64,000 nt of DNA from Akkermansia muciniphila. Lineage in GTDB: Bacteria > Verrucomicrobiota > Verrucomicrobiia > Limisphaerales > UBA9464. The stretch lies in assembly GCA_945893185.1 (NCBI GenBank), contig CAMDDW010000006.1, positions 13,495 to 77,494 on the forward strand. Reading direction: 5' to 3'. Positions 3,597 to 54,904 of the stretch are shown piece by piece. Position numbers and translations under genes: made by a program. Each line of letters starts with the position of its first letter. Position 1 is the first letter of the stretch. Under the pieces are notes generated by a model that saw only the letters and a list, made by a program, of their open reading frames with translations, did not search any database and was not told where the DNA came from.

Positions 3597-3663
3597 CGCC
3601 CGGTGAGGGCACCGGGCCTACAACATGTCCAAATCGCCCGGTGAGGGCACCGGGCCTACAACA
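3597..3663. repeat. two tandem copies of a 29-bp hairpin-containing repeat (period 38 bp)
   Basis: cgcccggtgagggcaccgggcctacaaca occurs at 3597-3625 and again at 3635-3663. Each copy holds the 7-bp inverted repeat cccggtg/caccggg. It lies immediately downstream of the pilT stop (3668) and upstream of tpiA. Confidence 0.75.
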
Positions 3664-3667
3664 CGTT

Positions 3668-4750
3668 TCATTTGCCGTTCGGCTTGAAACGATCGGGGTC
3701 TCGGGCCCGGGAAATCGCGGCATCGTAAGAAATCAAACACTTCGAGTAGAGGTCGTAGAGACAGTTGTCCATCAGCACCGAACCATCCCGGCCGCCCAAC
3801 TGCATAATCGTGTAAAGTTGATGCAATTGATTCTCGCGAATCACCGACCGAGCGGCCGCAGTCATCATCAAGAGCTCGTAGGCCAGGACTCGGCGAGTCC
3901 GATCGATGGCAGGCATCAGATCCTGGGCGATGACGCCCTGAAGAGAATTGGCCAACTGCAGCACAACCTGTTTCTGAGCGCTCCCCTCGAAGATCCCGAC
4001 GATCCGCTCCAGCGCATGCATCGCGCTGGGAGCATGGAGCGTGGCCAGCACCAGGTGCCCGGTTTCCGCTGCGGTGAGCGCGGTCTGGATCGTCTCGTGA
4101 TCCCGCATCTCGCCGATGCAAATAATATCGGGATCCTGCCTCAGGGCGTGGATGAGCGCATGGTTAAAGGACCGCACATCGGTCAGCACCTCCTGCTGCA
4201 CCACGATGGCCCGACGGTTTTCATGAACTCGTTCGATGGGATCTTCAATGGTCAGGATCTTGCAGCGCCGCTCCCCATTGATGAGGTCGACCATGTAGTT
4301 CATGGTCGTGGTCTTGCCCGCTCCGGTGGGGCCAGTGATCAGGATTAACCCGTTGGTCTTACGAGCCAACTCATCGATGCGTGGAGGCAAGCCCAGCTCC
4401 TCCCGGGTCGGAAAGAGTTTTCCGCAGAACCGGCAACTCAGCTCAGTGACCCCGTTGCGCCGGTAGAACGTGACCCGAATCCGGCCGGCGACGCTGTGGC
4501 GGATGGAAATGCACAGTTCCCAGAGCTGATCGAGCTTCTGCCGCTGCAAGTCGGTCAGGAGCGATTGGGCCATGACTTCGCAATCCTCGGGCGACACGGC
4601 GTCCTCATCAGCCAAAAGAATCTCGCCGGTCACCCGAAAGGCGGGCGGAACTCCCACGATCACATGCAAATCGGAGGCACCCATCGACACGGCTTCGATG
4701 AGCAGTCGATCCATCCGGGAGTGGATGGCGTCGGCGATATGAGGGTTCAT
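3668..4750 (-). CDS. pilT: type IV pilus retraction (twitching motility) ATPase, PilT family
   Basis: 360 aa. Walker A GPTGAGKTTT, TIEDPIE, Walker B/Asp box ILVGEMRD-like (IICIGEMRD), His box TGHLVLATLH. Length and motifs match the PilT/PilU family. Confidence 0.9.
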   Translation of the reverse strand: MNPHIADAIHSRMDRLLIEAVSMGASDLHVIVGVPPAFRVTGEILLADEDAVSPEDCEVMAQSLLTDLQRQKLDQLWELCISIRHSVAGRIRVTFYRRNGVTELSCRFCGKLFPTREELGLPPRIDELARKTNGLILITGPTGAGKTTTMNYMVDLINGERRCKILTIEDPIERVHENRRAIVVQQEVLTDVRSFNHALIHALRQDPDIICIGEMRDHETIQTALTAAETGHLVLATLHAPSAMHALERIVGIFEGSAQKQVVLQLANSLQGVIAQDLMPAIDRTRRVLAYELLMMTAAARSVIRENQLHQLYTIMQLGGRDGSVLMDNCLYDLYSKCLISYDAAISRARDPDRFKPNGK

Positions 4751-5523
4751 AATCTATGAAATCGTCGAAAAACACCGGTGCACCGCTCCAGTAAGCCGGG
4801 GCGCTGAGAACGGCTCAACCCGTCGCTTGCCGCCAGGGAATCGGGCTGGATTTGCCAGGCCTGAGTAAAGGAAACCCGGGCCTCGTCATGAAAGCTCAGC
4901 AGAAGCTGGCAGTCTCCCGCGAGGAGCCAGGGCGAAATCTCACCCGGGGCCAGACTGCAAGCGTCCCGGGCCGATTGCAGCGCCTTGGCGAACTGACCAT
5001 GGAATCGGCGGATCCTCCCGGTCAGCCAGGCGCAGGTCCAGTCGGACGGAAGAACACTGCGGGCCCGTTCGAAGCAATGGTCGGCCTGTTTTTCGCGGCG
5101 CGACAAGAACACGTCGCCCCGAGCCAACCAGACGTAGGCCGAATCACCCCGCTCCTCGATGCTGGCATCGGAAAAGGCGATGGCATTGTCGTGGTCTCCC
5201 AACCGGCCGAGCGCGACCGCCTTGGCGGCCAACAACTCCGGCGCCTGCGGAAATCGCTCCAGGGCCTTGTCGGCCCACAACCGGGCTTCGCGGAATTCGC
5301 CCAACTCAATCAAAGACCGCACCTGCCCTGCCCAAGCCGGAACGCTCGTCGGATTGTGCTCGAGCACGCGGGCGAAAAGCCGCAGGGCCAATTCGAAGTC
5401 ACCCAGGCAGAATGCGCGCTCGGCCTCCGACGACCAGTGTGTCTCTCCGGCGGCCGGCCGCAGAGACTGCTGCCCGGAAGAGTCCGGCCCCGTTTCGAAT
5501 TCCAGTTTTCCAAAGCGGCTCAT
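4747..5523 (-). CDS. TPR repeat protein
   Basis: Internal ATG at 5523 (MSRFGKLEFE...). TPR-like helices (AERAFCLGDFELALRLFARVLEHNPTSVPAWAGQV..., EFREARLWADKALERFPQAPE...). 4-nt ATGA overlaps with both neighbours. The longer ORF-track version would overlap the upstream gene. Confidence 0.75.
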   Translation of the reverse strand: MSRFGKLEFETGPDSSGQQSLRPAAGETHWSSEAERAFCLGDFELALRLFARVLEHNPTSVPAWAGQVRSLIELGEFREARLWADKALERFPQAPELLAAKAVALGRLGDHDNAIAFSDASIEERGDSAYVWLARGDVFLSRREKQADHCFERARSVLPSDWTCAWLTGRIRRFHGQFAKALQSARDACSLAPGEISPWLLAGDCQLLLSFHDEARVSFTQAWQIQPDSLAASDGLSRSQRPGLLERCTGVFRRFHRL

Positions 5524-6473
5524 GGCTGTGTTTGATCGTGGAAAAACCATCGGCCATAGACCCGACCTAGGAAATCGGAATGTCGCACCGCCGACATGCG
5601 GTGAAAGGCCTCTGCAAAGGTTGCATCGGCATTGCGGCGGACTCCGCCGACCATAACGCCCTGCCGGGGCACCCGCACCGTAGGCCAAACAAACCATTGT
5701 CCGGGTTCCACCACTTGCTCGCCCTCCATCGGCATGCCCTCTAAACGCGGCACATCCCGGCCATTGACTCGCACCGACTTCGGCGTGAAGACGATCCGAT
5801 CGCCCGGAAGCCCAAACACCCGTCCCAGGATCGGCCCCTGCGCGAAAACCCAAGGATTGTCACCCCAAGGTTGGCTGCGGAACCCCTCTTGATGAAATGC
5901 GATCGAATCTCCGCGCTGCACGTCGCTGGCACGGACCCTCGGGTTGAACACCACGGTTCGATCCTCAGTGGTGATTCGCAAGGGGGTGGCCACGCGACGC
6001 CGGAACTGATCGAAGCCCGGCATGTAGACCAACGAGTAGTAAATCGCCCAGCACACCAGCGGCAGCAGGATCCGCTCGGCGAGGCCGGCCGGGTGGCCCT
6101 GGTTCGCTTCACGCTGACGGAGCATCAGGAAGGCCAGTCCGCTGGAATGGCAGGAAGCCATGCCTCCCATAAACCATCCCATGGTCGGATGGCACAGCAA
6201 GATCACGGTGGCCACCGCGCTCAGCCACCAACCCGCCAAGAAAACCCGGCCCAAGGTCCGCTGACCCAACAGCACATAACCCCGGCCTGGGATCAGCGAT
6301 GCCAAAAACCACTGGAAGCCCGTCAACTCCAACCCCATCCCTTGGCCTAACGGGCTACTCCTCCACATCCGCCGGATCGACAGCCCGAAACGATCGAGTG
6401 ACTGGCCTAGGCGCGGGGAGATCCACCGACGCCCAGCGCGCGGCGGGTAATAGCTTGAGGTCTCGGAATCCAT
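5520..6473 (-). CDS. polytopic membrane protein with C-terminal S26 (signal peptidase I)-like domain, probably non-catalytic
   Basis: 317 aa. Hydrophobic N-terminal half. The C-terminal half carries box-C/D-like RGDSIAF and LGRVFGLPGDRIVF...VRVNGRDV...VEPGQWFVWP. I see no SMxPT serine box, and the position of the catalytic Lys (K-R-x-x-G-x-P-G-D) reads G-R. Confidence 0.6.
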   Translation of the reverse strand: MDSETSSYYPPRAGRRWISPRLGQSLDRFGLSIRRMWRSSPLGQGMGLELTGFQWFLASLIPGRGYVLLGQRTLGRVFLAGWWLSAVATVILLCHPTMGWFMGGMASCHSSGLAFLMLRQREANQGHPAGLAERILLPLVCWAIYYSLVYMPGFDQFRRRVATPLRITTEDRTVVFNPRVRASDVQRGDSIAFHQEGFRSQPWGDNPWVFAQGPILGRVFGLPGDRIVFTPKSVRVNGRDVPRLEGMPMEGEQVVEPGQWFVWPTVRVPRQGVMVGGVRRNADATFAEAFHRMSAVRHSDFLGRVYGRWFFHDQTQP

Positions 6474-6494
6474 CCGCCGAAGAAGTTGGGAACC

Positions 6495-6695
6495 TCAGTG
6501 CTGCTGCTTGTTGTGCAAGGTCACATCCTCGTCCGGTTCGTAATATCCAGAGGTGTGCCGCAATTCTTGGGTTTTTCCGATCATCTGCTCGAAGAACCGG
6601 AGGACCTCGACACACCCTTTGCCTTGGAACCCTTCGACATGGATTTCGACCTCTCCGGTGGGGCCGATGGTGATTTCGTATTCGCGCGCTTTCAT
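6495..6695 (-). CDS. DUF2997 family small protein
   Basis: 66 aa: MKAREYEITIGPTGEVEIHVEGFQGKGCVEVLRFFEQMIGKTQELRHTSGYYE. It matches my memory of the DUF2997 pattern: short protein, I-x-P-x-G-x-V then G-x-x-G-x-x-C, then T-x-E-Y-Y. It sits next to a DUF1257 gene, as is usual. Confidence 0.7.
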   Translation of the reverse strand: MKAREYEITIGPTGEVEIHVEGFQGKGCVEVLRFFEQMIGKTQELRHTSGYYEPDEDVTLHNKQQH

Positions 6696-6750
6696 GGGGC
6701 TGTTGGTCGGTTGGAATCTACTGGGGGGATGACTGTGTCAGGACCGCACT

Positions 6751-7224
6751 TTAATTCTGCCAATGTCGGACCCGGAGACGGATGGACTGATTCTGTTCTA
6801 CGGTCTCCTCGACCAAATCCATCCCCTTGCCTGCCATCTCGGATTTGAGCTTCGCCAACACATAATGCTGCACCGTCCGGCCGGCGATCTCATCGCCGAT
6901 GGCTCGGAGTTGCACCTCGGTTAAGCCCTCTCCGGTGACACACACCGAATCGCGCCCGCGGGCATCACGGCTGAACTCGACATTCACCCCGTCGCGAGCC
7001 AACTGGATCTGCTGATCCCGACCCAACGTGCCCGTCACGGCCGAGCAGTTCGGCACATCGAGGGTCACGGTATTCGAACCGGCACGGAGGTCCTGGTTCA
7101 GGCCTTGTTGGGCGACCTCTCGGGCCACGCTGAAACCCATCGACACCGCCGCCGAGGCGACTGCGGCGCTAATGGCAGGCCAAGAACTAACGACGATGGG
7201 AGCAATGATGGCGACAGCACTCAT
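6751..7224 (-). CDS. DUF1257 (Ycf35-like) domain protein with N-terminal hydrophobic segment
   Basis: 157 aa. The C-terminal part, VQHYVLAKLKSEMAGKGMDLVEETVEQNQSIRLRVRHWQ, resembles the conserved DUF1257 C-terminus. The N-terminus MSAVAIIAPIVVSSWPAISAAVASAAVSMGF is hydrophobic. Confidence 0.65.
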   Translation of the reverse strand: MSAVAIIAPIVVSSWPAISAAVASAAVSMGFSVAREVAQQGLNQDLRAGSNTVTLDVPNCSAVTGTLGRDQQIQLARDGVNVEFSRDARGRDSVCVTGEGLTEVQLRAIGDEIAGRTVQHYVLAKLKSEMAGKGMDLVEETVEQNQSIRLRVRHWQN

Positions 7225-7302
7225 AGATTAGTGGGAATTGTCAGGACGTTATGAAGTTGGACCGGGCTGGTTCGGATTCGTCACGCAAGATCGGACCTTT
7301 TC

Positions 7303-8868
7303 TCAGAACTCCATCTTTCTGGGCAAATGTTCCCCCAGACCCGCGTTGCGGGGAGTGCTGGCATTGCGCGCCCGACCCTCGGCCCAACTGCGGAGTCGGT
7401 TGATTTGCTCATCCATGGTGCGGGCCAGCGGGACGGTTTGACGGATAGAATTCAGGACATGCTCGGTCGTCAGATCTCCGCCATCGTAGAAGGCCTCGTA
7501 CAAAGCGCTGTTGATGGCTTCTTCAATCTCGGCACCACTGAAGTCGGTTGAGGCTGCCGCCAAGACGGGTAAATCAAAGTTTTCGGGAAACCGACCCCGC
7601 CGCCCGATGTGTACTTTAAATATGTCGGCGCGCTCGGGTTCTGCTGGAAGATCCACGAAGAAGATCTCGTCGAGGCGGCCTTTGCGGAGCAACTCCGCCG
7701 GTAAGTGCGAGATATCATTGGCCGTGGCGACGACGAACACCGGCGCATTCTTCTCGCTCAACCAAGTGAGGAAAGTACCGAAGACGCGGGCGGCCGTGCC
7801 CCCATCACTCGAACCACTCCCCTGGGAACCGGAAAAGGCTTTGTCGATTTCGTCTACCCACAGGATGGCCGGGGCAACTGACTCGGCGACCGCGATGGCC
7901 CGGCGCACGTTCTCCTCGGACGAGCCCACGAGGCTACCGAACATCCGCCCCATGTCGAAGCGCAGCAACGGCAACTGCCACTGGCTCGAGATTGCCTTAG
8001 CGCAAAGGCTTTTGCCGCACCCCTGCACGCCCAGCAGCAGCACTCCCTTGGGGAACGGCAAACCGAAGATCCGCGCTTCAGGCGAGAAGGCCGATGACCG
8101 TTTAACCAGCCAGTCCTTGAGAATGGTCAGGCCACCCACGCTGCTGAAGTTCTCGGTGGTGGCGTAATACTCCAGCAGGCCGCTCTTGCGGATGATTTGC
8201 TGCTTCTCGGCGAACACCTCGTTGACGTCGTCTCCGCTGAGGCGAGCGTCCTTAACGATGATCTTGGCGAATACGTTCTCAGCCTCGCCCAGCGTCAAAC
8301 CCAAGGCCGCTTGCAGCAACCGATCCCGGCCCGCCACGTCGAGATTAATGACCACTTCCTTGATAGAGCGCACATCCTCCAGAATTCGATCTAGCAACGC
8401 ACCCAGGTCTTCCTTAGTGGGCAGCGGGAAACTCAAGACGGTAATTTCCTTGTCCAATTCCGCGGGAATCTCCAGCAGCGGCGACACTAGGATGACCGTC
8501 TTAAAACTGTTCTTCAGGTTCAGAGCGATGTCCTTGAGCTTACGGATGACGGCGAAATTGGACTTCGCCAGGAACGGATGAAAATCCTTGAAGAGGAAAA
8601 TCGCCGGTTCCACCTGTTCCAGCACCTGGTCTAGAGCGGCGAGTGGGTCTTTGGTGGCACCCGAGCGTCCCTTCTGACTCTGGATACTCGCACCGGCCAA
8701 CACGATGCCCGTGGAATAAGACCACTCGAAGGCCTTCTTGCCCCGGCGGGCGGCGATGTCCATCACCACAGGGATCACGCGCAGCTCCTCGCTGGTCTGA
8801 ATATAGATCAGCGGATACCGAGCTCGGATGAGCACCTCGAGTTCAGAGGCAAACGTGTTGGAGGTCAT
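7303..8868 (-). CDS. AAA+ ATPase (classic AAA clade, single ATPase domain with about 250-aa N-terminal domain)
   Basis: 521 aa. Walker A GVQGCGKS, Walker B ILWVDEIDK, second region of homology ATANDISHLPAELLRKGRLDE, C-terminal helical lid (FSGAEIEEAI). Confidence 0.9.
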   Translation of the reverse strand: MTSNTFASELEVLIRARYPLIYIQTSEELRVIPVVMDIAARRGKKAFEWSYSTGIVLAGASIQSQKGRSGATKDPLAALDQVLEQVEPAIFLFKDFHPFLAKSNFAVIRKLKDIALNLKNSFKTVILVSPLLEIPAELDKEITVLSFPLPTKEDLGALLDRILEDVRSIKEVVINLDVAGRDRLLQAALGLTLGEAENVFAKIIVKDARLSGDDVNEVFAEKQQIIRKSGLLEYYATTENFSSVGGLTILKDWLVKRSSAFSPEARIFGLPFPKGVLLLGVQGCGKSLCAKAISSQWQLPLLRFDMGRMFGSLVGSSEENVRRAIAVAESVAPAILWVDEIDKAFSGSQGSGSSDGGTAARVFGTFLTWLSEKNAPVFVVATANDISHLPAELLRKGRLDEIFFVDLPAEPERADIFKVHIGRRGRFPENFDLPVLAAASTDFSGAEIEEAINSALYEAFYDGGDLTTEHVLNSIRQTVPLARTMDEQINRLRSWAEGRARNASTPRNAGLGEHLPRKMEF

Positions 8869-9107
8869 GGAGAAGTCGATTCAGTGGAGGGGGAGGCGTC
8901 GCCCGAATCCAGCGCGGTCTGAAGAAAAAACGCCAGTTCCGGAGTCAAGTTGTGGGCAAGAATGCGCCCGTCGGTGAGCAGCATTAGCTCCGAAATCACC
9001 GGAACCAACTCAGGGCCTGGAACAAGAATGGGGGACCCGGACGGTTCCGGCCCCGAGGTCAGTCTGCAGGGCTCGGTTTCATTTGATCCTTCAGAGAGCG
9101 GCGTCAT
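8865..9107 (-). CDS. hypothetical small protein (80 aa)
   Basis: The ORF exactly fills the gap between the radical SAM stop (9120) and the AAA+ start. It has a 4-nt ATGA overlap with the AAA+ gene. No recognisable motif. Coding status rests on position and coupling only. Confidence 0.4.
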   Translation of the reverse strand: MTPLSEGSNETEPCRLTSGPEPSGSPILVPGPELVPVISELMLLTDGRILAHNLTPELAFFLQTALDSGDASPSTESTSP

Positions 9108-9119
9108 GCAGTGAGTCTT

Positions 9120-10088
9120 TCAGTCAATGAACCGCAGTCCGGCCTCCATCCCGATACGGGTGGCCTCCTGAGCCTCGCTCAACCGGCCGGGTGCCTTCAG
9201 TTCCGCATGACGGCTGCTGAACCAACCGGGCCAGAAGCCGGTCCTCAAGCTCACCTCCACCTGGGGCAGATGTTCCGCGATCCACGCCGCAGCCGGGCGC
9301 CAGCAGCATTCGAGGTGCCCCGGCAAAAGCAGGTGCCGCACAATCAGGCGGGTCTGCCCCGCCGCCCACCGCAGGTTGTCCTGGACGGTCGAGCAGTAAC
9401 CCTCCACCCGGGCGATGCGACGGGCGCAGTCGTCGTTGCCAAACTTGAGGTCTGCCACCCAACCATCGAAGACCCCATCCAACAGGGCATTGGACTCCGA
9501 GGTGCCGTGGGCGTTGGTCTTCCACACCACAGGCAATCCGTCCGGCAGGGCCGCCACCAGTTCCAAAGCCGAAGCCAAATGAATCGTCGGCTCGCCCCCG
9601 AGGATCATCAGGCTGCGCACCGCGCCGGATTCCCAAGCCCGACCGATACGGCTCAGCAGAGCCTCCCGCTCGACTCCTTCGGGAACGGAACCCGCCGACG
9701 CATCCCAACTTTCGCGACCGGTGTTGCAGAAATCGCAGCGGAGATCGCACCCGCTGAAGGCCACGGCAAAGACCGGACACAAATCGGATTCATCCCCCAC
9801 TTCGATCTGGGCACTGAAAATACGCCCCTCGGGACCGGCATGACAGGGGCCTCTTTGGCCGGCCAGACGATCCACCCCGCAGCGATGCGCGCACCAATGA
9901 CAATGACTCAATTGTTCGCGTGCGATGGCGGCCCGTTGGGATGCCAACCCAGCGCGCGAACCCGTCTCCGAGTGCCCAGTACCGACACATCGAATCGGGT
10001 TCCGGCCGCGGCTCGGGCTCGCGACATAAAACCCCTCTCGCAAACCCGGTTCCTGGACCAAAGACAGGCTCAAAAGAGTTGCCTCCAC
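9120..10088 (-). CDS. radical SAM protein, PflX-like (COG1313-type putative activase)
   Basis: CxxxCxxC cluster motif GCDLRCDFCN. An upstream Cys-rich segment, SHCHWCAHRCGVDRLAGQRGPC, is typical of PflX-type proteins. LILGGEPT-like MILGGEPT. The start is uncertain, because the ORF-track start overlaps the upstream ORF by 19 nt. Confidence 0.85.
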   Translation of the reverse strand: MEATLLSLSLVQEPGLREGFYVASPSRGRNPIRCVGTGHSETGSRAGLASQRAAIAREQLSHCHWCAHRCGVDRLAGQRGPCHAGPEGRIFSAQIEVGDESDLCPVFAVAFSGCDLRCDFCNTGRESWDASAGSVPEGVEREALLSRIGRAWESGAVRSLMILGGEPTIHLASALELVAALPDGLPVVWKTNAHGTSESNALLDGVFDGWVADLKFGNDDCARRIARVEGYCSTVQDNLRWAAGQTRLIVRHLLLPGHLECCWRPAAAWIAEHLPQVEVSLRTGFWPGWFSSRHAELKAPGRLSEAQEATRIGMEAGLRFID

Positions 10089-10318
10089 CAGGGTTTTAAG
10101 TCGGCACCGATCGGCGGAGTAACACCCGCCGGATTCGCAATACTCGCTGTCACGCGCGCTCGCAAATCTTCCGGAACCGGCGTCTGGGACCGGTCCCAGG
10201 CGATCAGCGCCTCAGGAGTCTCGAAGTCGACCGGCGTCCGAGCCTCCGTGTGCTGAGTGGACGTACTTTCCAAGTTCGCCTGAGTGACTGTTTGAAGTCG
10301 TTGGGACGGGGTGCTCAT
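10070..10318 (-). CDS. hypothetical small protein (82 aa), in the position usually held by an anti-sigma factor
   Basis: The ORF begins 24 bp downstream of the ECF sigma stop on the same strand. It has no TM segment and no zinc-binding motif. Coding status is inferred from position only. Confidence 0.4.
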   Translation of the reverse strand: MSTPSQRLQTVTQANLESTSTQHTEARTPVDFETPEALIAWDRSQTPVPEDLRARVTASIANPAGVTPPIGADLKPWWRQLF

Positions 10319-10342
10319 GGGGGAATTGGCAAAAATAGGGGT

Positions 10343-10936
10343 TTAGCCGGTCTTGACGAATGCAGCCGAGAAGGCTCGGCGGGCCCGGTGCAGTTTACCA
10401 CGGACGGCATCGGAACTCTGCTGGGTAATCTCGCCGACCTGTTCGTAGCTCAGATCTTGATCAGCGACCAAGAGCAGCAGGCACCGATACTCCTCCGGCA
10501 GGCAGTCTAAGGCGTTTTGAATGCGCTGACCCAGTTCCTTGGTCTCGAGAGCACGGAGAGGGTCCCCAGCCGCGGAAGGCTGAGACTCCAAGAGCGAGGT
10601 GTCGTCGGTGAGGTGGATATTTCGCGCAGACCATCGCTGCCGCAAGTTGGTGCAATGGTGGAGCGTGATCCGGTAGAGCCAGGTCCGGATGTCGGAGTCA
10701 CCCCGGAAGGATCCAAAATTCCGGAAGGCCTTCACGAACACGTCATGGGCGACGTCCTGGGCCTGCGCCGCATCCCCCAAAAACCGCAACGCCAAATAGT
10801 ACACCGGCTGCGCATGGGCTGCGTAAACCGCCTCGAAATCGGCCGACAACCCTCCGTGTTCATCCACGCCGCCCCCATTTTCCGGAGCATTCCCCTGCTT
10901 TACGCAGGCGATCTCCTTGGGTTCGGGCGCGATCAT
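10343..10936 (-). CDS. RNA polymerase ECF-type sigma-70 factor
   Basis: Internal ATG at 10936. Region 2: DVAHDVFVKAFRNFGSFRGDSDIRTWLYRITLHHC. Region 4: LPEEYRCLLLLVADQDLSYEQVGEITQQSSDAVRGKLHRARRAF. The longer ORF-track version would overlap the divergent antitoxin gene. Confidence 0.85.
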   Translation of the reverse strand: MIAPEPKEIACVKQGNAPENGGGVDEHGGLSADFEAVYAAHAQPVYYLALRFLGDAAQAQDVAHDVFVKAFRNFGSFRGDSDIRTWLYRITLHHCTNLRQRWSARNIHLTDDTSLLESQPSAAGDPLRALETKELGQRIQNALDCLPEEYRCLLLLVADQDLSYEQVGEITQQSSDAVRGKLHRARRAFSAAFVKTG

Positions 10937-11036
10937 CACCCCCTTTGGACAAGGCCACCGCCCAAGTGTCACGCAGGAAAAACTCCCATCGCTAGAACCA
11001 AACCCTCCGCTAAGTCCAGTTGCATGGGCCAACGCG

Positions 11037-11077
11037 TTGACGACGAGATGGATTTGATACATTAATATCGATGTATG
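11037..11077 (+). promoter_or_regulatory. candidate promoter and palindromic operator of the RHH-PIN toxin-antitoxin operon
   Basis: TTGACG at 11037-11042, followed 15-18 nt later by the AT-rich tacattaat. The 6-bp inverted repeat atacat (11057-11062) / atgtat (11071-11076) overlaps the -10 region and the start codon (11075). Confidence 0.3.
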
Positions 11078-11317
11078 AAGACCATCACGATCAATGTATC
11101 TGAGCCGGTGTACGAGGATTTCCAGAGATTCGCCCAGAAAATGGACCGTAAGGCCTCCGAACTCATCCGAGAGGCCATGGAAGCTTACCGCCAACAGCAC
11201 ATGCTGCGTCGAACTTCGCTACGGGATCGGCGTCCCGCCAGCGTCGGGGGCCCCATCCAACCCATCACCTCCGAAGACGATTTGCTGGGAGAAATGCTGC
11301 ATGACCTACGGGATTGA
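11075..11317 (+). CDS. type II antitoxin, ribbon-helix-helix (CopG/VapB-like)
   Basis: 80 aa. The N-terminal MKTITINVSEPVYEDFQRFAQKMDRKASELIREAMEAY is a typical RHH fold sequence. It overlaps the downstream PIN gene by 17 nt. Confidence 0.8.
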   Translation: MKTITINVSEPVYEDFQRFAQKMDRKASELIREAMEAYRQQHMLRRTSLRDRRPASVGGPIQPITSEDDLLGEMLHDLRD

Positions 11318-11741
11318 TACCGACTTCCTAGTCGCGCTGGAAATCCGGGATCACCCATTTCACCGGGAAGCCGACGCCTTGCTCCGATCGTTGCTGGATG
11401 GCGGGCATGATCTGGCATTGGCACCCCAAACCCTCGCGGAATTCCTGCATGTGGTCACCGATGGGAAACGGATGCCGACCCCCCTACCGATGTCCGAAGC
11501 CCTCCAACGGACGGAGCATTGGTGGCAGGCCGCGGAAGTGATCCGGGTCTTCCCTGACGGCCCCTCGGTCACGGAATTTCTTACTTGGATCAACCGTCAC
11601 TCCCTCGGGCGCAAACGACTGCTGGACACGATGCTGGCCGCCCTAATGGCCCAAGCGGGAGTAACCCGGATCGTCACCAATAACGCCCAAGATTACCGTG
11701 GTTTCGGTCGCTTTGAAATCGTGCCCTTCCGGGGCGACTGA
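11301..11741 (+). CDS. type II toxin, PIN-domain ribonuclease (VapC-like)
   Basis: From the ATG at 11301: MTYGIDTDFLVALEIRDHPFH...LAPQTLAEFLHVVT...TRIVTNNAQDYRGF. The acidic PIN residues (D at the N-terminus, E, a T-N-N/D motif near the C-terminus) are in the expected places. Confidence 0.85.
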   Translation: MTYGIDTDFLVALEIRDHPFHREADALLRSLLDGGHDLALAPQTLAEFLHVVTDGKRMPTPLPMSEALQRTEHWWQAAEVIRVFPDGPSVTEFLTWINRHSLGRKRLLDTMLAALMAQAGVTRIVTNNAQDYRGFGRFEIVPFRGD

Positions 11742-12951: not shown

Positions 12952-15900
12952 TCACGGATTGGCCACACCCGGCGATCCACCGATCCGAGTAGAGACCCTC
13001 CAGGCTCCGGGTTGATCGGAGTAAGCCTGAACGCTCCGAAGTTGCAGAGTGTACCCGCGGCCATCGGCTTCGACCGGCCAAGGGGCAGAATCGTCGTAGG
13101 CGAGCTTAAGCACCAGCGTGCCGTCAGCCGCGTGGATTCGCAGCGTGTCGCCGCCATTACCCAAGCCAAACCCAAACTCGCCCAGCGGCTTGGGCCCGAG
13201 CGGAAACGTCCGCTGAAACCGGAGACTGTCCTGACAGAACACGGCGTATCCGCCGGCAGGAATCACTCCCCCGCTCAGCACGCTCACATTCGAATCGGTG
13301 TCATCGCGCACAATCCACCCGGTGAGATCCACCGGTGCGGTGCCAGGATTGTGCAACTCGAACCAATCGCCAGAATCCGCCGCAGAGGCCGGGTGATACT
13401 GGATCTCGCTCAAAATCACCGGAGGCCGAGCCGGAGCCACCGGTGAGTAGGCCTCCAAATGGGCAGTGAGAGTGTTGGTGCCGGATGGCGGATTGAACTC
13501 CCACCGGGCTAGCGAAACCTCGATGCCCCAACCGCTCCAACCGACGACACGGAATCCGGATGCGGGAATCACCGTGGCCACCACGGGCGCGTCCCGAAAA
13601 AAGGTTCCCACCCAGGGAGGCGGCGCGGCCACCGAACGATTCAACCTCACCTGCCCCGCCCCGGCCGGCGAAACGACCGCCTGCAGTTGCGCCAACCCCT
13701 GCTTCAAGCCGAAGTGATCGAGGCAATCTTGCCGGAGCTTGGTGGGGCGTCGGCGAGCGAAGTCGCTCAAGGAGTCGAGGTTCTTCTCCCAGGTCGCCGC
13801 CGTGAACGGTTCATACTCCGCCTGATAGGGCTTGCCGTAGCCGCGCTTCTGCAACTCGGCGAAGCTCCAGCGTTGGAGGTGCCGGGGAATCTCTGGCCGA
13901 ATTACTGCGGCCATGGAACGGATCGTTGCCTCCACCCGCTCTTGACGGAAAGGCCCGTTCAGAAAGTCCGCACAGCGCTGGATAAAGAGGGTCCGCACCC
14001 CGGGGTTGGTCAGCAACCGGCGGAGCATCAAGGTGCGCCCACCTTCATTAGGCCAACCGGTGCCTGAGCCGATGCCAGCGGTCGAGAAGGCGAAGATATT
14101 GTCATAGTTCCCGTAATCGCGGGCCATGGCTGGCACGTAGACCTCGGGTTTCCACAAGTTGAAGCCATAGTCTTGATCGTAGACGATCCATCGGAACCGC
14201 CCGTTCGGAACTCGTGGACGCCAGCACTTGATGTTGCCGATGTCGAAGTTTTGGAAGTAGACGAGCGACGCTTGGTAATCGAGGAAGTTGTCCAGATCGA
14301 GGTAACGGTCGAGGAGCGTTTGGAGATTGGTCTGAATTGTTAGGTCTTTCGAGGACACGAACGAGCGCATCGCCGTGTAGGCCTGGCTATCACCCGCGAT
14401 CACCGCGCCGTAGCCCTCGATCAGGTCGAGCCCACCGCGGGGCACCTCATGGTTCCCGATAATGTGATGCTCATTCAGCTTCTCTCGCAAATTGTGAATA
14501 CCCCAGTAGTCGCCGTTCAAATAAACCACCGTCGGCCGGTAGGCCTGGGTATCCAATCCGGTGTCCGCGATCAGGCGCTCCATCATGGCGTCGCGCATCA
14601 GCGTGAACTGCCCGTTCACGAAGTAACTGCCGTAGGAAGTCACCGGCCCGAATTGGGTGATGGGTGACCGGACAGCCGTCTGGTGGGTGCTCTGGTTGTC
14701 ATTGCCAGAATTGCGCAGCACTAGGGCCTCGAACTGGTCCATGGGTCGATCCGGAAAGAAGCGGTACGCCAGATTGCCATCACCGTACTTGACGCGCGCT
14801 GAAAGGGCGTAGGATTTTTGCGGATACCCGCGGGAACCCCATCCGCCATAAACCGACATCCCCACCTTCTGACGAACCTTGGACTGGCGGTCGGTGTCGA
14901 AGAATTCGAAACCCACCTCAATCTCCCGATCTTTCCAGGCGTTGGACCCCGAGTACGGATAACTCTGGAGCACCTGCCCGCTGGTGCTGAGCACACCCGT
15001 GCCCATGCCAATGAGATAGCCATTCTTGAAGTCGAAGTTCGAGGCCGCCGCCGCCAGCGAGATGACCGGCAGGTCATGGGAAATGCCGAAGAAATAACTC
15101 CGCAGGGACTCCGCGCTGGAACGCGCCTCCAAATAAGCCTTAGCCCGGACCACCTGAGAGCGTTGGATGCGCAGCGGACCTGTCCACGTCGGCGAGACAA
15201 CCGTGACAGGGTCGCCATTGGTCGTGTAGCGGATCAGGGCATTGGTCGGTGAGGCTTGCAAATTGAGCACCACCTCGGCCCCCGCGGCGTAGAAACCCGA
15301 ATCTACCGAGAACACGGGCGGCGGCACCGGAGGCCCCAGCGAAACGACGCCATTGGCAGCACCGGGTGTCGCCTGCGACTTGGAATACACCGTCCACTCC
15401 CCGGCTTCTGGATTGGGAGGTCGGCCCAGCGACTCATTAGGGCCCAATCGAGGCACCACCACCTGGTCGACGACCCGCCCCTCGGCATCGCTCAACGTCA
15501 GGGTCTCGCCGGCGGCATCGAGGCGAAAATCGGTGTGCAATTCGTTGCCGGGGCCGATGCGATCCAGATCCGAAGCATAGACCACGAGGGATTGCCCTGG
15601 CTGGATCCACCGCTCTGGGAATTGCCAGCGCACCGGCCTTAACAGGTCCTCCGAGAGGGCGAATCCCGCCAGCGCAATGGCTCGGTCCTGCGGATTGGAA
15701 ATCTCAATCCAATCCCAGAAGGCCCCAGCGGCATCGGGAAACACCGCGGCGTTGTCGCTCATCACCTCGGTGATCTGGAGCAACCCCGCGGCAGAACCTT
15801 CGGTCAGGATGCGGTAGAAGAGGGGTGTTGTTCCGGCAGGTTCAGGAATGCGCACCTGAAAACGACCCAGTGCCGACTCGTTCACTGTGGCCGTGGAGTC

Positions 15901-16161
15901 CAACGACCACACCATCGGGGTTTGCCACCCGGCGGCGACTTGCACCCGATAGGCCTTCGGGTCATCGGAATTGGCGGTGAACTCGAAAACGAACCCTTTG
16001 CCGACGGAACTCTGAATCGACTCGCGCAGGATGAGCGGCGCGAGGGGCTGCGCCAATAACCACACGGGAAACACAGCGGACAGCAAAGCCACCCACCAGG
16101 GCCTCCCGTGTGAGAAAAATTTCACAGCCGGCTCTCCAGTTTTCGGGCGCGGCGGATCCAC
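12952..16161 (-). CDS. secreted CotH-domain protein with two lamin-tail (LTD) domains
   Basis: 1069 aa with a signal peptide. LTD-like ITEVMSDNAAVFPDAAGAFWDWIEISNP near the N-terminus and ILSEIQYHPASAADSGDWFELHNPGTAPVDLTGW near the C-terminus. The central part is CotH-like (YFVNGQFTLMRDAMMERL...VVYLNGDYWGIHNLREK). Confidence 0.85.
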   Translation of the reverse strand: MDPPRPKTGEPAVKFFSHGRPWWVALLSAVFPVWLLAQPLAPLILRESIQSSVGKGFVFEFTANSDDPKAYRVQVAAGWQTPMVWSLDSTATVNESALGRFQVRIPEPAGTTPLFYRILTEGSAAGLLQITEVMSDNAAVFPDAAGAFWDWIEISNPQDRAIALAGFALSEDLLRPVRWQFPERWIQPGQSLVVYASDLDRIGPGNELHTDFRLDAAGETLTLSDAEGRVVDQVVVPRLGPNESLGRPPNPEAGEWTVYSKSQATPGAANGVVSLGPPVPPPVFSVDSGFYAAGAEVVLNLQASPTNALIRYTTNGDPVTVVSPTWTGPLRIQRSQVVRAKAYLEARSSAESLRSYFFGISHDLPVISLAAAASNFDFKNGYLIGMGTGVLSTSGQVLQSYPYSGSNAWKDREIEVGFEFFDTDRQSKVRQKVGMSVYGGWGSRGYPQKSYALSARVKYGDGNLAYRFFPDRPMDQFEALVLRNSGNDNQSTHQTAVRSPITQFGPVTSYGSYFVNGQFTLMRDAMMERLIADTGLDTQAYRPTVVYLNGDYWGIHNLREKLNEHHIIGNHEVPRGGLDLIEGYGAVIAGDSQAYTAMRSFVSSKDLTIQTNLQTLLDRYLDLDNFLDYQASLVYFQNFDIGNIKCWRPRVPNGRFRWIVYDQDYGFNLWKPEVYVPAMARDYGNYDNIFAFSTAGIGSGTGWPNEGGRTLMLRRLLTNPGVRTLFIQRCADFLNGPFRQERVEATIRSMAAVIRPEIPRHLQRWSFAELQKRGYGKPYQAEYEPFTAATWEKNLDSLSDFARRRPTKLRQDCLDHFGLKQGLAQLQAVVSPAGAGQVRLNRSVAAPPPWVGTFFRDAPVVATVIPASGFRVVGWSGWGIEVSLARWEFNPPSGTNTLTAHLEAYSPVAPARPPVILSEIQYHPASAADSGDWFELHNPGTAPVDLTGWIVRDDTDSNVSVLSGGVIPAGGYAVFCQDSLRFQRTFPLGPKPLGEFGFGLGNGGDTLRIHAADGTLVLKLAYDDSAPWPVEADGRGYTLQLRSVQAYSDQPGAWRVSTRIGGSPGVANP

Positions 16162-16895
16162 ACTGCATTGCGGGATTTCTCGAAGGCCGGGGAGTGGTTT
16201 TGGTCGGCCACCACCTCATCGATTTCAGCCTGGGCCTCATCAACCATCCCTCGCGAGGCGAGCAACTCGGCATACTGGACCCGAGCCCTGGGATAGCTGT
16301 TGTTTTCGAGCACGCGCTTCCAATTCAGGAGAGCGGCGTCCACTTCGCCGAGGGCCGTTTGGGTCTCAGCCAAGGCCATGAGTGTGTAGCCAAAATCGTG
16401 TCGCGGGTCGGACTTCAGAATCTTCTCCAAGAGGGGCTTGGCCTCGGCGGCTTTGCCTTGCCGTAGGAGGCACTGCCCCAAATGGCTAACGGTGTCGTCA
16501 TCCTCCGGATCCCGCTCCAAAGCCCGCCGGTAAGAGGCCTCTGCCTTGGTCAGTTTGCCCTGCGAGAAATAAAGATCTGCTAAATCCAAATGGTCGCGAG
16601 CCTTGTCGAGGTGATGAATGCGGCTCTCCAGTTCCTTAATCCGGCGGCGATCGGCCGCACCCGGTAATTCAAAGCCTCTGAGTCCCATTCCGCCGCTGGC
16701 CGATGCCTGCGCCCGATACACCATGAAGTAATAAAACACCGCGCTGAAGACGCTGAAGAAGAGGATACACGCCGCCCAGATCCACTCTTCGCGGCGCAAG
16801 GCATCCACCATCATCCAAAGCTGAAAAGCAGCCCCGATCAGCAGGAGAGGGTTCTCCAGGGACAACTGCATCAAATCGTTAATCAAGCCGATCAT
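16122..16895 (-). CDS. membrane-anchored TPR repeat protein
   Basis: Start chosen at the ATG at 16895 (MIGLINDLMQLSLENPLLLIGAAF...). Two TM segments are followed by TPR-like repeats (LADLYFSQGKLTKAEASYRRALERDPEDDD...). The longer ORF-track start (16991) would be encoded by a non-coding repeat that also occurs at 59291-59440. Confidence 0.75.
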   Translation of the reverse strand: MIGLINDLMQLSLENPLLLIGAAFQLWMMVDALRREEWIWAACILFFSVFSAVFYYFMVYRAQASASGGMGLRGFELPGAADRRRIKELESRIHHLDKARDHLDLADLYFSQGKLTKAEASYRRALERDPEDDDTVSHLGQCLLRQGKAAEAKPLLEKILKSDPRHDFGYTLMALAETQTALGEVDAALLNWKRVLENNSYPRARVQYAELLASRGMVDEAQAEIDEVVADQNHSPAFEKSRNAVWIRRARKLESRL

Positions 16896-16910
16896 CGCCT
16901 TAAGACTAAT

Positions 16911-17040
16911 CCGGAACGATTCCGTTGGGAAGAAAGGGACCGCGCCGCGGATTCTTTCGCAAGACGAGGCGAGAGCGAAGGCACGGGCCATACTGAGGTT
17001 TGCGCTTAAGGCCCGTAACGAGCGAACAACGACGCTCTTG
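16911..17040. repeat. copy A of a dispersed non-coding intergenic element of about 130-150 bp
   Basis: Aligns by eye with 59291-59440. Shared blocks: gaacgattc-gttggga-gaaa, cgattctttcgc, gaggcgag, gc(g/c)cttaag(g/c)c, cgaacaacg, ctcttg. No conserved reading frame on either strand. Confidence 0.6.
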
Positions 17041-18180: not shown

Positions 18181-19527
18181 TCAAATCTGCTCGAAGTAGC
18201 GCTGCTTTTCCCAGTCGGTCACCGCGTTGCTAAAAGCCTGATGTTCGAGGCGGGCGTGGTGCACTGAAAAGTCGACAACCCCGTCGCCGAAGGCCTCGCG
18301 GGCCAGGCGCGACCCGTTGAAGAGGTCGGCAGCCGCGATCAGACTCGAGGGCAGACGCGGCAACTTCGGATCGATATAGGCATTGCCGGAATAGGGCTCA
18401 CCGCAGTCGAGCCCCTCATCGATGCCCGCCAAACCGGCGGCGATCATGGCCGCAAAAGCAAGGTATGGATTGGCATCAGCCCCGGGCATGCGGTTCTCCG
18501 GACGGTAACCATTGCCCTGCCCCACCACGCGGAATCCGGTGGTGCGGTTGTCCTGGGCCCAAGCCATGCGGGTCGGAGCCCAGCTCCCGGCCTGATAACG
18601 TTTGTAGCTGTTGATGGTCGGTCCGTAGAACAGGCACAACTCCGGAGAATATTTCAGCAACCCGCCCAAAAATTGCCGGAACATCGTGGACCCGGTCTTG
18701 GCCTTCGGATCCCAGAACAAGTTGCGGCCGGCCTTCCACAGGCTCATGTGAATATGACAGGAGTTCCCCGCCTCGGTCGGTGCCACCTTGGCCATGAAAC
18801 TCACCGACTTACCGTGCTGTCCGGCGATTTCCTTGACCCCCTGCTTGAAGACGACATGTCGATCAGCCATCTCCATGGCCTCGCCGTAGGTGAAATTAAT
18901 CTCATGCTGACCGCGGCTCCACTCGCCCTTGCTGCTCTCGATCGGCACACCCGCGGCCGTGAGTCCGTTGCGAATGGCCCGCATCAGCGGTTCATCGCGG
19001 CCGGGCTGCATCAAGTGGTAATCGATGCGGTAGTCGCTCGAGGGTTTGAGGTTCCGATAACCGGCTTCGAAGGCGGCACCGTAGGTTTGCTCATAGAGAT
19101 AAAACTCCAACTCGCTGGCGCAGAAGCAGGTGAGGCCGCGTTCCTTGAGCCGATCCAACTGGCGGCGCAACACCGAACGCGGAGCTTCGGCCACCGGCGA
19201 CCCGTTGGCGTGGCGAAAGTCGCAAATCACCAAGGCTGAACCCGGAAGCCAGGGCATCAGCCGGAACGTGGCCGTATCGGGCAGCATCTCAAAATCACCG
19301 AAACCCGAATCCCAATTGGCGACGGCAAACCCATCCAGCGGATCCATGTCGAGATTGACCGTGAGCAAGTAGCTACAGCCATGGGTCCCATGGGACACCA
19401 CTGACTCCAGAAAATGGCCTGCATGGAAACGCTTGCCCACGAGTCGGCCAAACGGATCGGGGATGGCCACGAGGACCGTGTCGACGGCACCCGACTTAAC
19501 CTGGGCCTTGAGCTGTTGGAGAGTCAT
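18181..19527 (-). CDS. glutamine synthetase family protein (gamma-glutamyl-amine synthetase, PuuA/GlnA-like)
   Basis: Internal ATG at 19527 (MTLQQLKAQVKSGAVDTV...). GS catalytic-domain motifs: SELEFYL, KGEWSRGQHEINF, GNSCHIHMSLW, NSYKRY, DNRTTGFRV. Confidence 0.9.
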   Translation of the reverse strand: MTLQQLKAQVKSGAVDTVLVAIPDPFGRLVGKRFHAGHFLESVVSHGTHGCSYLLTVNLDMDPLDGFAVANWDSGFGDFEMLPDTATFRLMPWLPGSALVICDFRHANGSPVAEAPRSVLRRQLDRLKERGLTCFCASELEFYLYEQTYGAAFEAGYRNLKPSSDYRIDYHLMQPGRDEPLMRAIRNGLTAAGVPIESSKGEWSRGQHEINFTYGEAMEMADRHVVFKQGVKEIAGQHGKSVSFMAKVAPTEAGNSCHIHMSLWKAGRNLFWDPKAKTGSTMFRQFLGGLLKYSPELCLFYGPTINSYKRYQAGSWAPTRMAWAQDNRTTGFRVVGQGNGYRPENRMPGADANPYLAFAAMIAAGLAGIDEGLDCGEPYSGNAYIDPKLPRLPSSLIAAADLFNGSRLAREAFGDGVVDFSVHHARLEHQAFSNAVTDWEKQRYFEQI

Positions 19528-19555
19528 ATTGAGATGGAGTGGGAAGAGATGCTGG

Positions 19556-20983: not shown

Positions 20984-21032
20984 GGGAGGAGTTGAGGAAA
21001 GAATGGGGGAGGCGGATTTGGAGCGTCGTTTG

Positions 21033-51046: not shown

Positions 51047-51558
51047 TTGAACATAGAGTCTCCGATGCTGTTACCCGAGCCCGCAGGGTTCGGTTTGCCT
51101 GACCGATAGGTGAACGATCCATAGCAGGCGGAGAGTTCTAGGGCTGGACGGGAATCTCAAAAACAACACCTGCCAGCGGGGGAGGACCAAATCCACACCG
51201 GAGATTCCCGGGATTCGGTGACCAAAACGAGTGATCCGCCAAGCCGCCGGGGAGTGAGCTCCATGCTTGCTCCTCGGCAAGACTCCGAATCGGCTGCAAA
51301 TCGACGCGTTGAACGCATTTAAAAAGCCCCTCGATGACCATTCGGCGCTAGCTCGTAGGCCAGCAGATGGACAAACAGGTAGGGGAACAGGTAGGGGAAA
51401 ATAAAACCCAAGAATCTTGAACGGGAAGCCCGGCAGCAGGGGCCCTTTAGCGCTCGGCAAATCCTCGAGGCCTTCCCGCAGGCCGAGCTTGATGATTTCG
51501 GCGACCAACACGGCTCCGCCCCCGGAAACCAGTGAACTCGTGGTCACCTGGCTGCCTT

Positions 51559-51588
51559 CCATCCGCCATTGCCACATCCGCCATTGCC
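51559..51588. repeat. perfect 15-bp tandem duplication 43 bp upstream of the dehydrogenase gene start
   Basis: catccgccattgcca at 51559-51573 and again at 51574-51588. Confidence 0.8.
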
Positions 51589-51630
51589 AGTTGCAGGAAA
51601 GACTCCTTGGCCATCAAGTTCGTCTACTCC

Positions 51631-54838: not shown

Positions 54839-54904
54839 AGGACCATAGGGGTCAGTTCTTGATATTGTTAACTACCCGCGCAGCTTCCTCCGGCGATACA
54901 AGTG

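Follow-up and report, generated by a model that had tools for sequence, protein, structure and literature searches.

The closest described relatives of the gene cluster that is the subject of this study are found in cyanobacteria. The chromosomal ycf46 gene is part of a three-gene operon (slr0373-slr0374-slr0376; Synpcc7942_0416-0418), which is induced by many stresses and whose function is unknown (PMC7496141; bioRxiv 10.1101/2025.07.21.665879), and the genes for DUF2997, Ycf35 (DUF1257) and Fed7 form another conserved cyanobacterial cluster, in which the first two lie beside a ferredoxin gene (PMC4284462). We analysed a stretch of 64,000 nucleotides (the window; assembly GCA_945893185.1, contig CAMDDW010000006.1, positions 13,495 to 77,494), which was deposited as Akkermansia muciniphila and is part of a public metagenomic contig of 113 kb. 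It contains ten genes for an extracytoplasmic function (ECF) sigma factor (sig), the small protein s82, an activase-type radical S-adenosylmethionine (SAM) enzyme, the small protein s80, a Ycf46-like AAA+ ATPase, a DUF1257 and a DUF2997 protein, a membrane protein with a signal peptidase-like (S26-like) domain, a tetratricopeptide repeat (TPR) protein and a PilT ATPase (Table 1). With the stress-induced ycf46 operon, this cluster shares an AAA+ protein of approximately 500 aa and its two-domain build, and with the ycf46 operon and the DUF2997-Ycf35-Fed7 cluster it shares the DUF1257 and DUF2997 partners and an Fe-S protein as a neighbour. The AAA+ protein of the window is 46-47% identical to copies from cyanobacterial plasmids, which have DUF1257 and DUF2997 as their flanking genes, and it is on these plasmid copies that its likeness to Ycf46 rests. 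In contrast to the cyanobacterial operon, which is under RpaB/ppGpp control, the cluster is driven by a dedicated ECF sigma factor; moreover, the radical SAM enzyme and s80 stand in place of the ferredoxin, and the S26-like, TPR and PilT genes are added. Both the regulatory architecture and the functional coupling of the cluster are well supported by the comparisons presented below, while its action at the membrane is a best guess.

Conservation of the cluster in Verrucomicrobiota

An earlier note, which was made from the DNA letters of the window, described ten co-directional open reading frames (ORFs) on the minus strand. The independent gene calls of the public contig were identical to these ten ORFs, and the spacings recomputed exactly: in the order of transcription, a 24-bp gap, a 19-nt overlap, a 12-bp gap, a 4-nt overlap, gaps of 78, 55 and 21 bp and two further 4-nt overlaps. 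Profile searches also agreed with the family labels that had been assigned to the products, apart from DUF1257. In this case, the window protein itself was below detection, but 32 of its 36 orthologues matched PF06868 (best E 8.7e-9).

The surroundings of the AAA+ gene were fetched from 80 genome loci and analysed using tblastn and de novo clustering of the ORFs. The titles of these records include Limisphaerales, Pedosphaera, Opitutales, Methylacidiphilales, Spartobacteria and metagenome-assembled genomes titled Akkermansia. The cluster was syntenic in most of 77 related genome loci from many orders of Verrucomicrobiota, which is far above chance, and the adjacency of its genes is clearly not confined to one genome. 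The consensus order was sig - s82 - (rhomboid-like) - (radical SAM - s80) - AAA+ - (protein with two transmembrane (TM) segments) - (DUF1257 - DUF2997 - S26-like) - TPR - PilT, with the genes in brackets being optional. Among the 37 loci with a sufficient flank, 19 carried the full set, seven to eight had the short form sig-s82-AAA-TPR-PilT, and in approximately nine sig-s82-(radical SAM)-AAA was followed by unrelated genes; two loci were permuted (S26-TPR-PilT-sig-s82-AAA). The sigma factor gene was located upstream of the AAA+ gene in 58 of the 61 loci that had enough flank, and one complete genome carried the AAA+ gene with no sigma factor.

Several subsets of the genes varied together. DUF1257, DUF2997 and the S26-like gene were jointly present in 19 of 19 loci and otherwise in none of 18, 38 of 61 loci had the radical SAM gene, and every occurrence of DUF1257 was accompanied by it. 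The TPR and PilT genes were paired in 26 of 27 loci. The most constant and most conserved element of the cluster was sig-s82-AAA+, rather than PilT. Thousands of database proteins are 72-78% identical to the AAA+ protein over its full length, nearly all of the named ones being from Verrucomicrobiota, and the PilT proteins are 60-76% identical across the phylum. This synteny, together with an ECF-type promoter before sig in approximately 49 loci, supports the view that the genes are conserved as a set, belong together functionally and are controlled by an ECF sigma factor of their own.

The ECF sigma factor and its promoters

The sigma factor consists of regions 2 and 4 only (Sigma70_r2, 50.9 bits; Sigma70_r4_2, 42.4 bits; TIGR02937, 87 bits with a cut-off of 42.9), and its true start codon may be the GTG at 10939 instead of the one that was called. 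Directly upstream of sig, the motif GCGTGAC-N15-16-TGTC(T/C)AA was found in 46 of 69 loci using the strict pattern and in approximately 49 using the relaxed pattern. The second block of this motif is followed, at a fixed distance of 5-7 nt, by a GTG or ATG codon. The sig mRNA is probably leaderless, because this is the distance that is expected from a -10 element to the start of transcription. In the window, the copy before sig (P1) was the only strict match in 64 kb, with 0.01 expected. A second copy (P2), which the relaxed search revealed, falls within the 78 bp that separate the AAA+ gene from DUF1257, and 11-12 other loci likewise have the motif 24-35 nt upstream of DUF1257. When 1.1 Mb of loci were searched using the relaxed pattern, 72 sites were found on the strand of the cluster versus eight on the opposite strand, and 65 of these 72 sites precede sig, DUF1257 or a gene of the f12 family. 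The latter encodes proteins of approximately 400 aa with N-terminal TM segments and TPRs and is located just before sig or after PilT in four loci as well as in 12 further ones. It is probably another member of the regulon, because the same ECF-type promoter precedes f12 in four loci. Homologues of f12, of f11 and of the rhomboid-like family f13 were not found in the window.

A scan for sigma-70-type promoters within the cluster found none, and a scan for intrinsic terminators between its genes revealed no site with a convincing stem. The cluster would best be read as one ECF sigma regulon that is composed of two adjacent units and is not necessarily a single transcript. An arrangement in two units also explains the genomes in which the halves are separated. 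The earlier note had proposed one transcription unit headed by its own ECF sigma factor; the sigma factor and the lack of internal terminators agree with this proposal, but P2 between the AAA+ gene and DUF1257, as well as the separability of the halves, point to a regulon of two units, which need not form one transcript.

The gene for s82 is always adjacent to sig, and members of its family directly follow sig in 56 loci. They have the conserved core EFAsxEElLRxDAxQTxVPPxxAxRLxxS and the C-terminal motif WW(R/K)(R/Q)LF, and no Pfam, NCBIfam or PDB match and no TM segment were found for s82. A Trp-rich basic motif of this kind (WW(R/K)(R/Q)LF or RWFWRRQ) ends 51 of 56 s82 proteins, 14 of 43 TPR proteins and 16 of 37 S26-like proteins, and it was found in two of 452 other ORFs. 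The motif might anchor these proteins at the membrane interface or act as a docking peptide that they have in common. In the region analysed here, the motif is encoded at 10070-10090 (s82), 4747-4775 (TPR) and 5520-5550 (S26-like). The arrangement of a putatively autoregulated ECF gene with a two-block promoter, which is followed by a small conserved partner gene and by effectors, resembles that of the RpoE-RseA and SigW-RsiW stress modules, in which the partner is an anti-sigma factor. Unlike in these modules, s82 has neither a TM segment nor a zinc-binding anti-sigma motif or a detectable anti-sigma domain, the transcript is apparently leaderless, and the effectors are two ATPase motors.

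The AAA+ ATPase, its C-terminal tail and related modules

All of the motifs of the AAA+ ATPase are intact, and the closest solved structures to its AAA domain are those of the D2 domain of Cdc48/p97 (E 5e-48), which agrees with its previous placement in the classic clade. Cyanobacterial, plasmid and phage homologues of approximately 500 aa, which are composed of a specific N-domain and one classic-clade AAA domain, can be aligned with the entire protein, and it also has a full-length match to phrog_8638, a family of 'unknown function'. When residues 1-235 are compared with the AAA domain of the same protein, the two align in register, but the Walker residues are absent from the former (hhalign E 0.012), which suggests that the N-domain is a degenerate D1-like ring. 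Searched on its own, the N-domain retrieved 3740 clusters defined at the 50% identity level.

The C-terminus of the AAA+ protein reads R(R/K)ME(F/L)-COOH, and that of an inactive rhomboid-like protein from 12 of the related loci reads RLEL-COOH. The general pattern [RK]-h-[ED]-h-COOH was found in 43 of 80 AAA+ proteins, in all 12 of the 12 rhomboid-like proteins and in none of 452 other ORFs. The presence of the tail on the AAA+ protein follows that of the radical SAM gene: it was found in 36 of the 45 loci that have this gene and in none of the 28 that do not. The same basic-hydrophobic-acidic-hydrophobic tail is retained in the plasmid and phage homologues. Of all the evidence, this co-variation speaks most clearly for a physical partnership of the AAA+ protein with the set of radical SAM, DUF1257 and DUF2997 proteins, in which DUF1257 or DUF2997 would most likely be the receptors of the tail.

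The rhomboid-like protein is encoded between s82 and the radical SAM gene in the 12 loci. It matches Pfam Rhomboid with 24.6 bits, the positions of the catalytic Ser and His are replaced, and its invariant C-terminal tail SERIxRLEL mimics the C-terminus of the AAA+ protein. A classic-clade AAA+ protein that is encoded beside non-catalytic membrane 'protease' folds resembles Cdc48/p97 with Derlin in endoplasmic reticulum-associated degradation and FtsH with its rhomboid adaptor YqgP, whose counterparts would be the S26-like protein in the window and the inactive rhomboid in the 12 relatives. Both of these systems follow the logic of a pseudo-protease receptor combined with an unfoldase. The cluster differs from them in that it has no ubiquitin-like tagging and no protease partner, and in that the rhomboid-like gene is absent from the window.

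The co-variation also bears on another explanation of the cluster, i.e., that its genes are neighbours by history only and form a conserved operon with no shared function, as is the case for tpiA-secG. The parts are indeed separable, since sig-s82-AAA may stand alone and AAA+ may occur without the sigma factor, and the interactions between the gene products are putative. This explanation would, however, have to account for a shared promoter motif before separate units, the strict co-variation of the gene subsets and of the AAA+ tail, the ATGA translational couplings and the C-terminal motif that is common to the s82, TPR and S26-like proteins. We consider it highly improbable.

The statement that the combination cannot be mapped onto any described system proved too strong, because its core, AAA+/DUF1257/DUF2997, in part with a radical SAM gene, is widespread on plasmids, in phages and in cyanobacteria. 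The two-domain AAA+ architecture was found on 709 plasmids, of which 586 are conjugative and many are IncC, and in 57 phages; cyanobacterial, Bacillus, Paenibacillus, Arthrobacter and Treponema plasmids are also among its carriers. The gene order is AAA-DUF1257-DUF2997-Fer4_12 on Paenibacillus polymyxa pPPM1a, Fer4_12-DUF1257-HhH-AAA-DUF2997 on a B. cereus plasmid, Fer4_12-AAA on a Treponema plasmid and AAA-x-DUF1257-small ORF in Rhizobium phage L338C, while an Arthrobacter plasmid carries the ATPase, two small ORFs and an nrdG-like gene. On IncC pR148 (19350-21510 of the record) and on hundreds of IncC-type plasmids, AAA+, a DUF1257-like protein (130 aa, starting with MSH) and DUF2997 form a conserved row, all three being annotated as hypothetical, in a region that also has ParB, HU, toxin-antitoxin and methyltransferase genes. 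DUF1257/DUF2997 accompany the AAA+ gene on Geminocystis, Planktothrix and Pseudanabaena plasmids as well. In the Pseudanabaena plasmid pPg_01 (129817-135761 of the record), GrpE and Hsp70 directly precede DUF1257, an ATP-binding protein, DUF2997 and AAA+, which hints at a link between the module and chaperone function. In common with the cluster, these sets have an AAA+ protein with the N-domain and the C-terminal tail, the same small partners and often a radical SAM gene, which is NrdG-like. They differ in being mobile, in their 21-53% identity, in the lack of a sigma factor, S26-like, TPR or PilT gene, in being annotated throughout as hypothetical and in their short NrdG/Fer4_12-type radical SAM enzyme compared to the PflX-like type found here.

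The recurrence of a radical SAM gene raises the possibility that the cluster is a modification pathway, in which the enzyme and s80 modify a small protein, DUF2997 being the obvious candidate, and the AAA+ protein unfolds, presents or recycles the substrate. The enzyme of the window has the CX3CX2C motif in the form CDLRCDFC and an N-terminal Cys-rich stretch, and its Radical_SAM and Fer4_12 matches are above the cut-offs; among the named activase families of NCBIfam, only weak matches (TIGR04337, NrdG and PflA) were obtained, all of them far below the cut-offs. In favour of this pathway, an activase-type radical SAM gene adjoins AAA+/DUF1257/DUF2997 in five distant lineages and co-varies with them in Verrucomicrobiota, cyanobacterial DUF2997 and DUF1257 lie beside a ferredoxin gene (PMC4284462), and s80 (30 members; conserved core SELLILPDGRILVHNLTPxMAxLLxELNPxD) is confined to loci with the radical SAM gene. 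The motif G-[FYIV]-x-G-x-x-C, which contains the two Gly and the Cys, is universal in DUF2997 and is kept in its plasmid and phage homologues. However, this loop was rejected as a glycyl-radical site, since the defining Arg and aromatic residue are not conserved, and no site of the RVxG[YFW] type was found in the proteins of the cluster. A search for the hallmarks of a gene cluster for ribosomally synthesised and post-translationally modified peptides (RiPPs) found no RiPP recognition element (RRE) and no SPASM domain, nor was there a Pfam match for s80 or s82, both of which have a conserved core. The assignment of s80 as a PqqD/RRE-like protein was also rejected, having no Pfam support in 27 members. 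Moreover, the IncC and cyanobacterial plasmid sets that are described above have no adjacent radical SAM gene, and the comparison did not support the orthology of the Verrucomicrobiota enzyme with the plasmid Fer4_12 genes. We regard a modification pathway as rather unlikely. Structure prediction did not add to the characterisation of the two small partners. The AlphaFold2 model of DUF1257, which was built on an alignment of 64 sequences, had a pLDDT of 65 and no usable match to the PDB using Foldseek (best E 0.048, TM <=0.35), and that of DUF2997 (14 close homologues; pLDDT 54.5), a hairpin and a helix, was too poor for a structure search that could have borne on the idea of a ubiquitin-like beta-grasp fold.

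The same distribution could point to a domesticated defence or counter-defence module, whose AAA+/DUF1257/DUF2997 genes came from plasmids or phages and act in conflicts with mobile elements. The occurrence of the architecture on so many plasmids and phages, the match to phrog_8638, partial matches of the AAA domain to the IetA/IteA models and a VapBC-like toxin-antitoxin pair that adjoins the cluster would fit with such an origin. The phylum-wide synteny and the 72-78% identity of the AAA+ protein are, however, housekeeping-like and unlike the patchy distribution of defence islands, the GC content is uniform, and control by a dedicated ECF sigma factor speaks against it as well. A known defence system as the identity of the cluster was rejected, since no PADLOC system was matched and the IetA/IteA score of 61 bits is far under the cut-off of 510. 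We therefore hold this origin to be very unlikely.

The flanks of the cluster are ordinary. Upstream are the divergent toxin-antitoxin pair and a HisF-like gene, and downstream tpiA and secG. In the pair, a ribbon-helix-helix antitoxin-like ORF (11075-11317, plus strand) overlaps a gene for a PIN-domain, VapC-like toxin (11301-11741, plus strand), both being divergent from sig, and P1 is located inside the 138-bp intergenic region that separates them from sig. The strong hairpins that had been noticed after the last gene were confirmed as two identical stem-loops between PilT and tpiA; the 24-nt units are 38 nt apart, have no T-run behind them and have no further copies elsewhere in the window. 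The region 3597-3658 has a fold energy of -43.9 kcal/mol (z-score -2.2) and may be a terminator or a repetitive extragenic palindromic (REP)-like element. Rfam and tRNA scans of the window were both empty. Elsewhere in the window, 12952-16161 on the minus strand encodes a large secreted-type protein of approximately 1046-1069 aa with LTD, CHB_HEX_C and CotH domains, which adjoins a TPR gene (16122-16991). An ORF at 23673-24668 (minus strand) has a faint signature of a Y1 (IS200/RAYT-like) transposase, a PSCyt2/PSD1 and DUF1501 gene pair of the kind that is abundant in Planctomycetes and Verrucomicrobia is located at 35933-40050 (minus strand), and additional DUF7133/cytochrome c proteins are encoded at 51532-57132.

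Table 1. Features of the cluster, listed in the direction of transcription, with their positions in the 64-kb window.
Feature	Position	Strand	Basis
P1, ECF-type promoter GCGTGAC-N16-TGTCCAA before sig	10945..10974	-	Sole strict motif match in the window; conserved motif before sig
sig, ECF (group IV) sigma-70 factor, 197 aa	10343..10936	-	Pfam Sigma70_r2, Sigma70_r4_2; TIGR02937
s82, small soluble sigma partner, candidate anti-sigma	10070..10318	-	Conserved family directly after sig
Radical SAM enzyme, activase-type (PflX/AmmeMemoRadiSam/NrdG-like)	9120..10088	-	Pfam Radical_SAM, Fer4_12
s80, small conserved protein	8865..9107	-	Conserved core; stop overlaps AAA+ start (ATGA)
Ycf46-like AAA+ ATPase, C-terminal RKMEF tail	7303..8868	-	Pfam AAA; Cdc48/p97 D2 closest in PDB
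P2, second ECF-type promoter-like site GCGTGAC-N16-GGTCCAA	7257..7286	-	Relaxed motif search; 32 nt before DUF1257 start
DUF1257 (Ycf35-family) protein, hydrophobic N-terminus	6751..7224	-	Orthologues match PF06868
DUF2997 protein, 66 aa	6495..6695	-	Pfam PF11211, 47 bits
S26-like membrane protein, non-catalytic signal peptidase I-like domain	5520..6473	-	Pfam Peptidase_S26, 29.8 bits
TPR protein	4747..5523	-	Multiple TPR Pfam families; ATGA overlaps with S26-like gene and PilT
PilT-family hexameric ATPase	3668..4750	-	TIGR01420
Two identical GC-rich stem-loops 3' of PilT stop codon	3597..3620 and 3635..3658	-	Fold energy; copy search

Membrane components and the proposed mechanism

The S26-like protein matches PF10502 with 29.8 bits (cut-off 22.9), and this match is partial and covers boxes C-D only. 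The alignment of 29 orthologues contains no conserved Ser or Lys, the position of box D being G/x-R/P-V, so that the catalytic dyad of Ser (box B) and Lys (box D) is gone and the protein is a pseudo-peptidase, as had been supposed. An invariant His in a hydrophobic segment and an N-terminal SPYYPPRA motif are conserved instead. In the PDB (4nv4, 4n31, 4k8w), its profile matches signal peptidase I as well as the non-catalytic pilus chaperones SipA and LepA. The PilT protein is a full-length member of the PilT/PilU family (TIGR01420, 372 bits with a cut-off of 319) and aligns to Aquifex PilT (2ewv) over residues 15-354 (E 4e-84); it is approximately as near to the solved PilT proteins as these are to each other. 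It differs from the type IVa retraction ATPases in that its gene shares an operon with those of a TPR protein and of the AAA+ module, with no pilus genes within 64 kb. The earlier note had emphasised this orphan position, and no pilin, PilB, PilC, PilMNOPQ or secretin was found among the called genes of the window. In many bacteria, a pilT that is located away from the other pil genes is normal. The absence is weak evidence against a conventional pilus context, and in some relatives, a cluster similar to that of a type II secretion system (T2SS) is located downstream. In three of the loci, approximately 1.5 kb downstream of PilT, this cluster comprises T2SSF, N-methyl pseudopilins, T2SSJ and T2SSK with HHH, and it is separated from PilT by a small lipoprotein gene, which lies on the opposite strand, and by a gene for a PP-loop ATPase. 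The Akkermansia mucin-utilisation (MUL) pilus loci were rejected as the identity of the cluster, since they consist of different genes.

These features would also fit with a module that controls a type IV pilus or a T2SS filament. PilT would then be the retraction ATPase, the TPR and S26-like proteins would be adaptors of pilin or PilT, the AAA+ set would be co-regulated cargo, and the sigma factor would switch surface filaments off or on under stress. The canonical, full-length PilT, its almost invariable pairing with the TPR gene, the T2SS-like genes downstream of it in the three loci and the SipA and LepA matches are all in line with this explanation, and Verrucomicrobiota are known to make type IV-like pili (PMC13174399). 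However, sig-s82-AAA+ and not PilT is the most conserved and constant element, the S26-like gene co-varies with DUF1257, DUF2997 and the radical SAM gene rather than with PilT, the T2SS-like genes are present in few loci with unrelated genes in between, SipA and LepA serve sortase pili, which are a different system, and the 64 kb hold no pil genes. Overall, we find filament control as the purpose of the whole cluster unlikely.

Our preferred reading is an autoregulated ECF sigma stress regulon with a Ycf46-like AAA+ remodelling core, which is extended by a pseudo-peptidase receptor and by TPR-PilT. It is proposed tentatively, as we give it slightly less than an even chance. A first unit, sig-s82-radical SAM-s80-AAA+, would be transcribed from a promoter close to the start codon, probably as a leaderless mRNA, and a second unit, DUF1257-DUF2997-S26-like-TPR-PilT, would have its own copy of the promoter and could also be reached by read-through. 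The core would be an ancient and widespread module, in which an AAA+ unfoldase with an inactive D1-like ring and an active Cdc48-D2-like ring has DUF1257 and DUF2997 as obligate small partners and is joined by the activase-type radical SAM enzyme. A signal would free the sigma factor from s82, the candidate anti-sigma factor, after which both units would be induced. The AAA+ hexamer might then remodel or extract client proteins, with DUF1257 and DUF2997 docking on its C-terminal tail or being handled via it. The non-catalytic S26-like membrane protein, in some relatives together with the pseudo-rhomboid that has the same tail, would serve as a membrane receptor. Through TPR-PilT, the response would be linked with another disassembly motor, located at the inner membrane, whose most plausible task is the retraction of a type IV pilus or a T2SS-like filament. 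The coupling of protein unfolding or extraction at the membrane to filament retraction is our best guess, which we infer from the properties of the families, the Hsp70/GrpE neighbourhood in one plasmid and the analogy with other pairs of pseudo-proteases and AAA+ proteins. The envelope-associated machine that was imagined in the earlier note is likewise a hypothesis.

Several points weigh against this reading. The functions of all of the members of the cluster are predicted from their sequences, the link between PilT and the AAA+ protein is conjectural, and conserved operons can hold unrelated genes. For s82, no similarity to known anti-sigma domains or structures was detectable, and some genomes hold the AAA+ gene without the sigma factor. 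The analogy with membrane extraction leans partly on the relatives, since the rhomboid-like gene and f11/f12 are missing from the window. Crude hydropathy gave an inconsistent TM count for the S26-like protein (2-4), and its domain may be periplasmic or cytoplasmic. Orthology could not be demonstrated between the radical SAM genes of Verrucomicrobiota and those of the plasmids, both of which are activase-like, and the structure predictions for DUF1257 and DUF2997 yielded no functional lead. A bolder version would regard the Ycf46-like AAA+ protein, DUF1257, DUF2997 and the radical SAM enzyme as an unrecognised and near-universal remodelling system with its partners on the C-terminal tail, which in Verrucomicrobiota has been wired with PilT and pseudo-proteases into a sigma-controlled, two-motor machine for the extraction or disassembly of envelope proteins, a bacterial analogue of Cdc48/Derlin-type extraction. 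In this full form, we think that it is improbable.

The cluster is assembled from known families throughout, and it has a known, although uncharacterised, relative in the ycf46 operon of cyanobacteria. No description of the Verrucomicrobiota cluster or of the four-gene module was found in the searchable literature. The phylum-wide, ECF-controlled cluster with its promoters, the recurrent AAA+/DUF1257/DUF2997/radical SAM module across phyla and mobile elements, and the co-variation of the tail together with the link to PilT and pseudo-proteases appear to be undescribed. Ycf46, Ycf35 (DUF1257) and DUF2997 are long-standing 'conserved hypothetical' genes of cyanobacteria and plastids, and the same module, invariably annotated as hypothetical, is carried by many phages and by IncC plasmids, which are common in the clinic. 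The cluster supplies a regulator and a promoter and hence a handle for inducing the module. It also connects the module consistently with an activase-type radical SAM enzyme and adds a candidate docking motif on the ATPase, and the site of action of the module is hinted at by its lineage-specific partners, i.e., PilT, the TPR protein and the pseudo-proteases. With this cluster, a very large and uncharacterised AAA+ family becomes amenable to functional tests in non-photosynthetic bacteria.

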